A DNA stretch of 40,470 nt from a bacterium (GTDB lineage: Bacteria > SAR324 > NAC60-12): positions 1-40,470 of the forward strand of contig CBDDTI010000449.1 in assembly GCA_965233585.1 (NCBI GenBank), given 5' to 3'. The position numbers were made by a program, and so were the translations under genes. The notes beneath the pieces are model-generated. The model was not told the origin of the DNA. It did not search any database and saw only the letters and a program-made list of their open reading frames with translations. The stretch's first letter is position 1; every line of letters begins with the position of its first letter. Positions 14,100 to 17,145 of this stretch are shown here, piece by piece.

Positions 14100-15870
14100 T
14101 TTTTTTACCCAGAAACACTTTATACACACAAGCTTTTGCACAAATGCTTTTCAAATATAGAATTTTGTGCAGATAAAAAATTTTAATTACAATATTATTT
14201 TTGCAAAGAAACTTTTTCACAAACACAGAAGCCTTTTAAACACAGACGCTTTTGCGCACAGAAACTTTTAAAACGCAGACGGTTTTGCACAGAAGTTTTT
14301 AAACACAAGATTTTTTTTGCATAGAATTTTTTATATACAAAAATTTTTTTACACGCAAACATTTTTAAACACAGCACCTTTTACACAGAAGCTTTTATAC
14401 AAAAAACTTTTATACACAGAAGCTTTTAAACCCAAAAGCTTTTACATACAGAAATTTTCACACACACAAACTTTTACACACAGACGCTTTTACACACAGA
14501 AACTTTTACGCACAGAAGCTTTTTATAGACACAAACTTTTATACACAGAAACTTTTACACAGAAGCTTTTTAGACGCAGATACTTTTACACACAGAAGCT
14601 TTTAGACACAGGAGCTTTTTTGCAAAGAAATTTTACACACAGAAGCTTTTAGATACAGGAGCTTTTTGGAAAAGAATTTTTTTTCCACAATTTATTTTTA
14701 CGTACAGAAGGTTTTTACAGGCAAACACTTTTGCACACAGAAGTTTTTACATAAAAGGTTTTTAGACGCAGACACTTTTACACACAGAACCTTTTAGACA
14801 AATGAGCTTTTTTGCAAAGAAGCTTTGAGATACAATTTTTTTTTACGTTCAGATTTTTTTTACACAGAAACACTTTTACACACAGAAGCTTTTACACAAA
14901 AACTTTTCAAATACAGACCTTTTTACAGAAAAAAACTTTTAGACACAGGAACATTTTTACAAAGAAACTTTTTCACAAACACAGAAGCTTTAAAAAGACA
15001 GACACTTTTGCGCACAGAAACTTTTAAAACACAGACACTTTTGCACAGAAGGTTTTAAACACAAGATTTTTTCTTATAAAAAACTTTTTATATACAAAAT
15101 ATTTTATGTACAGAAGCTTTTTAAACACAAAATTTTTTATATTCAAAAAGATTTTATACAGAAATTTTTTATATCCAAATGCTTTTATATTCAAATTCTT
15201 TTATACAGAAACTTTTTAGACGCAGATGCTTTTTGTACACAAAAGCTTTTAGAAACAGATTTCTTTCCCAAAGAAATTTTTACATATAAAATTTTTTTAT
15301 GCACAGAAGGTTTTAAGACGCAAATGCTTTTACCTATAGAAATTTTAAAATATAGTTTTTTTTTAAAAGAATTTTTTACATACAGAATATTTTATAAACA
15401 AAATTTTTTTATACACAGATACTTTTAAATACACCACCTTTTACACAAAAACTTTTTAAACGCAAACGCTTTTGCACACAGAAACTTTTAAACACAGGAG
15501 CTTTTTTACAAAAAAACTTTTATACACAAAATCTTTTTTTGCGCACAAAAGCTATTTACACACAAATACTTTTGCATACAAAAGCTTTAATACAAAATTT
15601 TTTAAACGCAAATGCTTTTGTACACAAAAACTTTTCAACACAGGTTTTTTTTACAAAAAACATTTTTTATATATAATTTTTTTTAACATACAAAGATTTT
15701 TAAACACAATACCTTTTATATAATTTTTTTTTAAATGCAGACATTTTTACACTAAAAACCTTTTAGACACTAGATTTTTTATGCACAAACACTTTTACAT
15801 ACAAAATCTTTTATATAAAAAACTTTTATACACAACATTTTTTACGTACAAAGCCTTTTATACGCAATCA
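14100..15870. repeat. Degenerate ~16-bp minisatellite (consensus ~TTTTACACACAGAAGC), increasingly AT-eroded rightward
   Basis: Clear copies at 14460-14650 (TTTTACACACAGACGC, TTTTACACACAGAAGC, TTTTACGCACAGAAGC) and eroded copies at 15060-15850 (e.g. TTTTATATAAAAAAC). The reverse complement (TGTGTG..AAAAG) fills the first ~700 bp of each array unit. Confidence 0.9.
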
Positions 15871-16430
15871 AACCTCATTTCGTATGAAAAAATTAGGCCA
15901 AACCCGGTTTTTTAGTTACAAAATAAAAAAAAGGAAAAAACAAAATATAAAAATAAAAAAATATAATACTAAGAAGATAAAAAAATATAAAGATAAATAA
16001 ATACGAAGATAAAAAATATCAAAATATAAAAATAAAAAGATAGGAAAATATAAAGATATAAGGATTTAAAAATATAATGTAAAAATAAGAAAATATAAAA
16101 ATAAGTAGTTATATAAATAAGTAAATGTAAAAATAAGAAGATATAAGGATATAAAGATTTAAAAATGTAAGGATAAAAAATTATAAAGATAAAAAAATAT
16201 GAAGATGCGATATAAAAATAAAATAATTTAAAGATAAGAAGATATAAAGATAAAAAGGTAGAAAAATGTAAGGACGTAAAGATGTGAAAGTAAGAAAATA
16301 CGAGGATAAAAAGATATGAAGATATGAGGATAAGAAGATATAAAAATCTGATATAAAGATATAAAGATGTAAAAATGTTTGCCAAAGTCCACTATTAAAA
16401 AATCCTTCGTTCAAACGCTTTCGAAAAAAA
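14100..16430 (-). mobile_element. Decayed non-autonomous interspersed repeat (CATCT-type tract, GCACGAAATGAGG-like motif, TGTGTGTAAAAGC minisatellite)
   Basis: On the minus strand: a CATCTT/TATCTT tract (15900-16380; AAGATATAAAGATGTAAA on +), then TTTTTCATACGAAATGAGGTTTGAT (~15866-15891), then the minisatellite. The same module order occurs on + in the array (catcttcac tract ~530-690, TTTTTGGCACGAACTAACGTTCGAT ~709-733, TGTGTG minisatellite from 1005). The resemblance to an abundant Symbiodiniaceae repeat is from recollection, not a search. Confidence 0.6.
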
Positions 16431-17145
16431 CATCATAATATTATTTATATTTACCAATATAATTTATTATAGCCGACGAATCCATATAATAAAACAAAAA
16501 TATGGTACCAAATTAACCAATATTTATATATTATTAATATTAGGATCTACCCCGCAAATCCGGGGCCACTCCGGGCATCAAGGTCATTAACATTTTTATC
16601 GGATCGAAGCCTATAGCCACGTTTCGGCCACCCCAGGAGCCATACCACCCCAATTTTACAAAAGCCAAATTCCGTTCTTAGAAAATTCGGCATCCACGGA
16701 ATTTGCGGGAAAATATCGGACATCATCATTAAGTTTCCAGATTTATCCCAAAAAAAATCTGGGGGTGTCCGTATGTATACACATATATATATATATCTTT
16801 CTTAATCTTTATCTATATATCTATATATCTATATCTATGATTCTATTGTCCAAGTCTGCTATACCATATTTAAGAGTTTTCATGGTCATTTTTGAAGTCA
16901 TTGATTTGATTGGTCGCACCTCAAATCATTCCAGATGCGAGCAGCAACTCACCCTCCGGTAATCAAACGTGGCCATGGAAAACCATCCATTTATGGTTGA
17001 TTTTCCCATTATGACTTTTCCTATGAAAACTTGCATTCATAGGTGCTTTTCGCTTTCCATTGCAATGTGGTAAAGCAATCTTTCAGGACCAGACTCGTTC
17101 TTGTGGCTGCGGAGTGGCACATTGTGCAGTTCCTGATTGTGCAGT

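Follow-up and report, generated by a model that had tools for sequence, protein, structure and literature searches.

Repeat-induced point mutation (RIP), the process known from Neurospora crassa and other Pezizomycotina, acts on duplicated DNA in general, tandem copies included, and produces C:G>T:A transitions only, in N. crassa with a preference for CpA. The AT-isochores of Leptosphaeria maculans are said to have been made by it. Editing by AID/APOBEC follows a preceding-base preference (TC, CC or WRC) and has left footprints in vertebrate retroelements and in viruses. The only localised hypermutation of a marine alga that we found in the literature searched is the TpA-specific T/A>C/G hypermutation of integrated viral DNA in Bigelowiella natans, as presented in the accessible text of a recent preprint (Mettrop et al. 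2026, bioRxiv 10.64898/2026.01.13.699255). In this work we analysed a 40,470-nucleotide stretch of DNA (the window), which is one entire contig (C449) of a 12.0-Mb assembly (G000; 747 contigs, ~39% GC) and is plausibly nuclear DNA of a Symbiodiniaceae-type dinoflagellate that was mis-binned into a bacterial genome. Comparison with sister copies confirmed that the block at positions 14100-16545 of the window is an A/T-shifted copy of a composite satellite, in which about half of the G/C appears to have turned into A/T. A sequence-only reading of the window had likened this block to RIP; the process that we propose would resemble RIP in its outcome and lie outside the RIP system.

The composite runs in the order ms1, 95-bp repeat, GC patch, (GA)n, (AAGATGTG)n and a short conserved end, and its parts in the window are given here for the + strand. 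It opens with ms1, a 16-bp minisatellite of 111 units with a GC of 0.262 (14100-15867), followed by a 38-bp remnant of one ~95-bp repeat unit of the ATCGACCCTCATTTCGTGCGAAAGGG type (15857-15894), both of them A/T-shifted. The purine-strand part that comes next (15895-16376) holds a GC-patch remnant, a (GA)n remnant and then ms2, a G>A-shifted (AAGATGTG)n array of 8-bp units (15920-16376), and it includes the most A/T-rich point of the block. The conserved end (16377-16433, with the 'post' anchor at 16391-16430) is likewise A/T-shifted, and a 112-bp A/T-rich tail (16434-16545, GC 0.179) leads from there to the composition edge at 16545/16546. The sequence after the end anchor is different at every locus, and the composite therefore ends near 16433; for the tail beyond 16433-16443 no homology was found in the 12 Mb of the assembly, within which all comparisons with paralogues and repeat families were made.

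The GC content of the block is 24%, and that of its non-minisatellite part 19%. Per 500 bp of 14001-16500 it is 0.302, 0.304, 0.236, 0.208 and 0.190, and 0.380 in the next 500 bp. At the right edge GC rises from 0.19 (16446-16545) to 0.55 (16546-16645), so that the abrupt switch in composition that had been reported at ~16545 is real; it is bridged by contigs of the public runs X1 (record 7), X5 (record 22) and X9 (record 29). On the left the block is preceded by a single-copy spacer of ordinary composition (13732-14099; GC 0.43 in 13900-13999 and 0.36 in 14000-14099), which has no other match in the 12 Mb, recurrence being limited to the stretch up to 13731 that is shared with the adjoining array.

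The direction of the change can be read from ms2, where transitions dominate. Counted unit by unit against AAGATGTG, 56 of 81 G in the left half and 49 of 85 in the right half have become A, with G>T changes at 3 and 2 sites, and 14 of 288 A/T sites have become G/C; pooled, 105 of 166 G turned to A and 5 to T, a 21:1 excess of transitions. Most of the G that survive (0, 6, 28, 2, 9 and 16 at positions 1, 2, 3, 4, 6 and 8, both halves pooled) are at positions 3, 6 and 8, where the ancestral unit has G, and the polarity is thereby fixed. Their number per 60 bp, from left to right, is 5, 5, 7, 6, 8, 10, 15 and 11, implying a trough at ~15900-16100 with weaker conversion to both sides. Unshifted GAAGATGTG/GAAGATGAG arrays occupy the same place of the composite on at least four other contigs, C230, C581, C315 and C477, just as the sequence-only reading had named the source units when it described erosion at 15920-16240. 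In these copies the segment up to the end anchor has a GC of 0.43-0.47, against 0.191 for its equivalent in the window (15868-16433). Arrays of the ms2 type are A/T-rich in the window and on C547, C352, C524 and C646, their GC varying from 0.01 to 0.20 with the locus. The idea that ms2 and the tail are inherently A/T-rich, as they are on C646, C547 and C352, is ruled out by the GC-type copies on C230, C581, C315 and C477.

The composite beyond ms1 was compared through two short single-copy anchors in addition to these unit-wise counts, a longer transition-tolerant alignment having misplaced the tail. The anchor at 15857-15894 is identical to C230:9652-9688 at 28 of 37 positions, with seven transitions and one transversion from G/C to A/T and none in reverse; the anchor at 16391-16430 is identical to C230:10067-10107 at 32 of 40, with six transitions, one transversion and one reverse change. 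An array motif had also been described as eroded, and this holds at 15867-15885 (- strand), which reads ATACGAAATGAGGTTTGAT and differs from the typed reference form, GCACGAAATGAGGTTCGAT, by three GC>AT transitions out of three differences; six copies of the motif in the adjoining 2.1-kb array read GCACGAACTAACGTTCGAT. On C230 the unshifted composite exists as a higher-order satellite of ~22 tandem macro-units of 1.37 kb (1246-28812), each comprising 95-bp repeats, the GC patch, (GA)n, (GAAGATGTG)n and ~700 bp more.

Arrays similar to ms1 are present on 17 contigs of the assembly, and all 25 that exceed 300 bp have in common the consensus TTTTACACACAGA[C/A]GC, with a GC mostly of 0.39-0.43; the genome-wide consensus is thus of GC type and not itself A/T-rich. 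Compared with it, ms1 of the window shows 180 transitions and 77 transversions from G/C to A/T, and 48 and 13 in the reverse direction. The per-site ratio of GC>AT to AT>GC is 6.5 overall, with 5.2 for the left half and 11.0 for the right half, and was higher than in the window only at C547:6826-7528 (8.8) and C599:22287-22633 (10.2), the other 22 arrays lying between 0.7 and 5.4. No fewer than 96 of the 102 units have a sequence of their own, and whether one position has changed is for the most part unrelated to the state of the others, 8-16 and 15-16 being the only linked pairs. This points to many separate events, and the spread of a few A/T-rich unit variants is ruled out. The erosion of ms1 toward 15060-15850 had been described as a gradient. 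It is indeed stronger to the right of ~15100, where 0.27-0.40 of the G/C sites were turned by transition, as compared with 0.17-0.29 up to that point, but the gradient itself is weak (Spearman rho 0.24, p 0.011) and resembles rather a step near 15100. The fraction of AT>GC changes is flat along the array, at ~0.05-0.09.

The immediate neighbourhood of the block is unaffected. To its left lies a tandem array of 2.1-kb units (1-13731, + strand) with 7 copies in register that are 96-100% identical and unshifted. Their spacings are 1745, 2127, 2128, 2127, 2107 and 2112, the first of which, being 1745 rather than ~2127, indicates one unit with a deletion; the units form two sub-types (96-97% vs 100% identity). 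The 2.1-kb unit contains ms1-derived DNA at 1093-1240 (forward) and 1401-2015 (reverse), also carries the 95-bp-repeat motif once, and provides a control inside the window itself. Its reverse ms1-derived part (615 bp) has a GC of 0.403 and a per-site ratio of 1.7, although the ms1-derived DNA of the array, with an alignment score per base of 0.21 vs 0.35-0.62, has decayed further than the block. Age alone therefore gives no shift.

The block also exceeds the ordinary spectrum of substitutions in this genome. The control consisted of 946 copies from 69 dispersed repeat families, in which GC>AT exceeds AT>GC 1.74-fold per site, GC>AT transitions and transversions number 3160 and 849 (3.7:1), and C>T at CpG is 1.6 times that at non-CpG sites. 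Ordinary age-related decay is ruled out by this control ratio and by the older, unshifted ms1-derived DNA of the adjoining array. None of the 211 testable dispersed copies was hypermutated at p<0.001, with the proviso that BLAST-based detection may miss the most heavily changed copies.

The same footprint occurs in other repeat families. The assembly contains 141 blocks with a GC below 0.22 (400-bp windows), ~120 kb in total, and they are clustered: they affect 74 contigs, as opposed to 100 expected and a minimum of 85 in 2000 trials. As many as 38 of the 141 lie on contigs with ms1, which make up 4.7% of the bases. One-way differences from unshifted relatives were found at C547:16106-16398 compared with C51 (94-bp satellite family; GC>AT 56 transitions and 8 transversions, reverse 0 and 3), at C422:8682-9121 compared with C73 (87 and 11, reverse 5 and 1) and at C646:266-505 compared with C287 (42 and 4, reverse 2 and 2). 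In three satellite families, A/T-shifted segments number 5 of 34, 2 of 9 and 2 of 8, and there are no G/C-shifted ones; the median GC of the 94-bp satellite family is 0.47 over its 34 segments. When queries were drawn at random, 70 of 5950 informative high-scoring segment pairs, from 20 of 734 queries, were strongly one-sided. Altogether no fewer than 17 additional segments, from other repeat families, show this one-way shift; the 17 pooled have 694 transitions and 182 transversions from G/C to A/T, 66 and 62 in reverse and 225 other changes.

The A/T blocks are also more asymmetric between purines and pyrimidines than random windows (|R-Y| >0.15 in 29% vs 5%). A process that starts at polypurine tracts in a non-B or single-stranded state would fit this asymmetry but is not shown by it. 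That the shift simply spreads with distance from an A/T core does not hold in general, as the C352 block, with a GC of 0.01, lies ~140 bp from an unshifted ms1 array. The largest A/T-rich blocks of the assembly, C51:17587-21823 (4.2 kb, GC 0.147) and C548:1-2560 (2.6 kb, GC 0.150), are complex and non-tandem, with base-sharp edges. At two loci, C548:8673-8869 and C497:3708-4086, the GC is 0.62-0.63 as opposed to a median of 0.49-0.50 in 17 and 12 relatives, and the differences are again nearly all one-way; there the outlier is the G/C-rich copy, so the polarity is ambiguous.

With regard to sequence context, no preference for CpG or CpA was observed. Pooled over 17 alignments, the mutated fractions by 3' neighbour are 0.28 for CA, 0.28 for CC, 0.26 for CG and 0.46 for CT, and by 5' neighbour 0.37 for AC, 0.39 for GC, 0.26 for CC and 0.28 for TC, counts that are not independent within tandem repeats. 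In 14 of the 17 alignments a lower fraction of CpG than of non-CpG sites has mutated, and the observed/expected (o/e) ratio of CpG is 0.99 in the A/T blocks and 0.82 elsewhere. The signature of methylated-CpG decay, that is, C>T at CpG and CpG depletion, was accordingly absent from the 17 alignments and from the blocks. For CpA/TpG the o/e ratio is 1.01 in the blocks and 1.13 elsewhere, and the (CpA+TpG)/(ApC+GpT) index derived from the o/e values is 1.27 in the blocks vs 1.23 elsewhere. In the window itself, the CpG o/e is 0.55 in 16546-33000 and 0.94 in the 2.1-kb array, with 0.82 for small contigs overall, so that CpG depletion differs strongly between neighbouring compartments. The sequence-only reading had seen mostly transitions on both strands, largely outside CpG. 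Direction, strands and the non-CpG context proved correct, but transversions amount to ~30% of the GC>AT changes of ms1.

The locus is real. Coverage of the block and of its right edge comes from four public runs, which belong to three studies. Runs X1 and X4, which come from one study that is possibly the source of the assembly, match it without a difference (X4 record 12 corresponds to 14878-16414), and runs X5 and X9, from two other studies, contain the block at ~94-97% identity, with 18 differences over 15284-15604 in X9 record 28 and 21 over 16025-16465 in X5 record 21. The A/T-rich state is therefore common to a second lineage and is no assembly artefact. A bisulfite-like or damage artefact is also ruled out: conversion stands at 30-70%, C>T and G>A occur side by side over stretches of a few hundred bases, and the independent runs give the same picture. 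Altogether an artefact of assembly, base-calling or library preparation is next to inconceivable: nothing specific was found that speaks for one beyond the origin of the window in a mis-binned metagenome assembly, and two runs identical to the window and two that are 94-97% alike speak against it.

Part of the history of the block can be reconstructed. At the end anchor, four GC-type loci (C230, C581, C315 and C477) stand against two of AT type, the window and C646, which have at least five GC>AT transitions in common, so that part of the shift would be older than the split between them. With a ratio of 2.9, ms1 of C646 has shifted little, and at least some of the ms1 shift in the window would thus be local and more recent. 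Among 40 listed of the 132 differences that separate the window from X5/X9 are 25 ms1 sites; the consensus base is in the other lineage at 14 of these and in the window at 7, and the changes derived in the window include 9 GC>AT and 2 AT>GC, a small hint that the shift may have gone on in the lineage of the window. Divergence from the second lineage (X5, X9) is uneven, with 3-3.7% at 13643-14043, ~5% in the A/T block and 0.2-0.4% at 16845-17400; possible reasons are constraint on the right flank, or a left part that is fast or paralogous. As the ordinary spacer at 13643-14043 is itself 3-3.7% divergent, we do not claim a raised rate in the block.

We put the probability at about one half that a locally confined, one-way C:G>T:A mutation of the deamination type acted on this satellite block and reached cytosines of both strands. 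What speaks for such a mutator is that transitions are in 21:1 excess in ms2, that hardly any changes run in reverse, that CpG is spared and that the edges are base-sharp. The process would have been strongest at the purine/pyrimidine-asymmetric core (~15900-16150), with less effect on the outer ms1 units and none on the adjoining 2.1-kb array or on the DNA to the right of 16545. Its chemistry would be the deamination of cytosines that are for the most part unmethylated, whether by an enzyme or spontaneously, and would take place in DNA that is frequently single-stranded or subject to poor repair; non-B polypurine tracts and repeat chromatin rich in 5-hydroxymethyluracil (5hmU) are candidate settings. 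The changes would have accumulated over a long time, in part before the separation of the window copy from that of C646 and in part later at the window locus. The proposal of a repeat-targeted deamination or hypermutation process is in this respect upheld for the strongly directional C>T/G>A change on this and other repeat blocks, but the rules of RIP do not apply and part of the change is inherited.

Several observations weigh against a deamination-type mutator or at least do not call for one. Transversions make up the ~30% of GC>AT changes in ms1 noted above, some of them being run-length changes or higher-order-repeat variants, and position 10 of the ms1 unit shows C->T in only 5 of 102 units, whereas positions 6 and 8, which share its ACA context, do so in 31 and 27 of 102. 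There is no standout motif, a purine before C being favoured in only 12 of 17 alignments, and no strand-coordinated clusters were found in these alignments (runs-test z -2.0 to 2.3), although repeated rounds of mutation would blur such runs. In the 17 other segments, which were chosen for looking one-sided, the transition to transversion ratio of GC>AT changes is 3.8:1 as compared with 3.7:1 in the genome background, so that a transition-specific enzyme is not required there. To this should be added the lack of independence of counts within tandem repeats, the end-anchor transitions common to the window and C646, the polarity, which comes from paralogues with no outgroup, and the assembly itself, which as a bin of ~39% GC is enriched for A/T-rich contigs and whose 12 Mb are an arbitrary fraction of a genome.

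The main rival requires no special mutator. A dead satellite copy that has fallen outside homogenisation and GC-biased gene conversion would drift to an A/T-rich mutational equilibrium, with active arrays and ordinary DNA held at ~40-45% GC. We take this possibility seriously, while considering it the less probable one. It agrees with the elevation of both transitions and transversions from G/C to A/T in ms1, with the background-like ratio of 3.8:1 in the 17 other segments and with the clustering of A/T blocks on satellite-rich contigs. Moreover, when scaled to the A<>T and C<>G classes, GC>AT changes are ~2 times commoner and AT>GC changes ~3 times rarer in the blocks, which is the symmetric pattern expected without a fixation bias favouring GC. 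However, drift of this kind leaves unexplained the ms2 core with its 105 G>A vs 5 G>T, and the sparing of CpG, which is the most mutable context in the control families. It would also have to accommodate more decayed ms1-derived DNA that, a few hundred to 9000 bases away, keeps a GC of 0.40 and a ratio of 1.7, the lack of any shift in the 211 dispersed dead copies, and a rise from 0.19 to 0.55 within a few bases, a sharpness not expected of effects linked to recombination. More doubtful still is a functional or self-propagating subfamily, for instance a boundary or matrix-attachment element, whose A/T-richness is selected or favoured in amplification and simply inherited. The changes common to A/T-type copies at two loci, the recurrence of A/T-rich ms2-type arrays at the window and on C547, C352, C524 and C646, and the near invariance of T1-T4 and A11 in the ms1 unit would suit it, as would the GC dips of 6-10% at Hi-C boundaries of Symbiodinium microadriaticum in the accessible part of PMC8110479. 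But the ms1 units are almost all distinct, with mostly independent changes, the degree of shift varies by locus (ms2 GC 0.01-0.20; an ms1 ratio of 2.9 on C646 vs 5-11 here), unrelated satellite families carry the same footprint, and a one-way process would still be needed for the first A/T-type copy.

Of very low probability is RIP in the strict sense, a homology-sensing system of the RID type that would mutate every duplicated sequence ahead of meiosis. Sharp-edged C:G>T:A change in one direction, on both strands and only in repeats, is what such a system leaves behind, and here the resemblance ends: CpA is not preferred, with the index at 1.27 in the blocks vs 1.23 elsewhere, the near-identical 2.1-kb array is untouched, and not one of the 211 dispersed copies is affected. 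To our knowledge no RID-type enzyme is known from dinoflagellates. Among the MMETSP transcriptomes, relatives of the RID-type DNMT4 are found only in diatoms as far as the accessible text of that survey goes (PMC9998398). Context, generality over duplicates and, as far as that survey goes, the RID-type enzyme all speak against RIP, and a likeness to RIP beyond the outcome, as the sequence-only reading had supposed, is not upheld. A fungal contaminant with RIP is ruled out by the missing CpA preference and by the Symbiodiniaceae relatives of the retroelement on this contig. Hardly more credible, and if anything a little less so, is a reversed polarity, in which the A/T type is ancestral and the GC type was made by a Bigelowiella natans-like TpA>TpG/CpA hypermutation. 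Such a process exists in another marine alga, to follow the available text of bioRxiv 10.64898/2026.01.13.699255, and changes of (AT)3 to (AC)3 and of TA to TG would fit some positions of ms1 and ms2. Yet 243 of 689 differing sites (35%) are in TpA of the A/T-type copy vs 32% of all A/T sites, the T4pA5 step is kept in 344 of 413 GC-type ms1 units, the old ms1-derived DNA of the 2.1-kb array descends from a GC-type unit, and the A/T-type arrays are heterogeneous around a GC-type consensus.

The attribution of the contig to a dinoflagellate, which had been assumed from the letters of the sequence, fits a retroelement of the long interspersed nuclear element (LINE) type at 33376-40408 (- strand). 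It has four long open reading frames of 779, 608, 307 and 597 amino acids and a GC of 50-55%, well over that of the rest of the contig. The Pfam domain RVT_1 was detected on the 608-aa frame (E 6.5e-10), the sole match among ten frames. The 779-aa frame (33376-35715, - strand) has 31 relatives, none of them from an NCBI or UniRef source, and the only named ones are those of EukProt from Cladocopium sp. Y103 (46% identity, 98% cover) and Fugacium kawagutii (37%). Identities of 46-50% among relatives of the retroelement would indicate the group of the host and not the species. A coral animal as host of this contig finds no support in these relatives. In a protein-cluster atlas the reverse-transcriptase frame matched only general LINE clusters, all with scores <0.9, and Rfam and tRNA scans of the window gave no match. 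Spliced-leader relics were not detected at up to 2 mismatches in the 12 Mb, which is weak evidence, as the bin is repeat-rich and gene-poor. The runs that contain the stretch are labelled coral metagenome or bear coded names, and RNA runs contain only a small share of it (0.05-0.16).

To the right of the block the window carries a chain of simple repeats (17926-19768). It begins with 2.4 copies of the 94-bp satellite (17926-18205, + strand, period 94), which is unshifted here but one-way shifted in some copies elsewhere, C547:16106-16309 among them, and goes on with (CACTA)n at 18267-18724, (AGAT)n at 18742-18939, (CATA)n at 19338-19656 and a 41-bp tandem repeat at 19652-19768. The order of 94-bp satellite and CACTA recurs on C547, where the A/T shift is present only in the satellite part.

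A one-way C>T process that acts locally and leaves CpG alone would, if real, represent a mutational regime new to dinoflagellates, with a bearing on how these organisms restrain their repeats and on why GC dips at domain boundaries. There are practical consequences as well, as such blocks lower the GC of a contig enough to send algal DNA into bacterial bins and hide repeat copies from similarity-based repeat annotation. The statement that no RIP system has been described in dinoflagellates agrees with our searches: no RIP-like or one-way hypermutation of dinoflagellate nuclear repeats was reported in the literature searched, subscription journals being mostly outside it, and the terms 'deamination', 'hypermutation' and 'point mutation' are absent from a 2024 review of dinoflagellate genomics. 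Dinoflagellate chromosomes have almost no nucleosomes, their CpG is methylated by default, and their thymine is partly replaced by 5hmU. In Breviolum, according to the accessible part of one study, 5hmU is enriched on repeats (PMC11071213). With this in mind, one may speculate, quite tentatively, that Symbiodiniaceae possess a locus-targeted system of cytosine deamination, or a repair-blind chromatin state tied to 5hmU-rich repeats. According to this speculation, mutation would start at purine/pyrimidine-asymmetric satellite tracts, spread outward until it meets a barrier and, over time, create blocks of 10-20% GC from repeats, making up a counterpart of RIP with other targeting rules and a possible source of the GC dips at domain boundaries.

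How, then, does this block compare with the systems described so far? With RIP it has in common the one-way C:G>T:A change on both strands, the restriction to repeats, the A/T blocks of kilobase size and the sharp edges. Unlike RIP, it lacks a CpA preference and leaves adjoining near-identical duplicates and dispersed repeats alone, transversions are also raised in part of it, and the targets are mainly satellites with short units. AID/APOBEC editing likewise yields clusters of C>T and G>A, and a sparing of methylated CpG would fit a deaminase hindered by 5-methylcytosine. In Symbiodinium, as described in the accessible text of De Mendoza et al. (2018), CG hypermethylation is the default and CH methylation is low, localised and found on transposons; the authors speculate that retrotransposon methyltransferases may protect cDNA from APOBEC-like editing (PMC5890265). 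A TC, CC or WRC motif, however, is not clear in the 17 alignments, where a purine before C is weakly favoured, strand-coordinated runs were not found in them, and the targets are not retro-copies. The process of Bigelowiella, as far as the preprint is accessible, is similarly domain-restricted and nearly transition-only, belongs to a marine microalga of the SAR group and has been proposed to be a deaminase-like defence; it differs in its opposite direction, its strict TpA context and its viral targets, and it was seen live in mutation-accumulation lines, whereas here satellites are affected and what we see is a footprint. Finally, the GC dips of 6-10% at Hi-C domain boundaries of Symbiodinium microadriaticum, in the accessible part of the report, are likewise local falls of GC on chromosomes of Symbiodiniaceae (Nand et al. 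2021, PMC8110479). Those dips are averages over ~10 kb at the boundaries of convergent gene arrays, whereas the block falls from ~43% to 19% over 2.4 kb and ends at a base-sharp edge.

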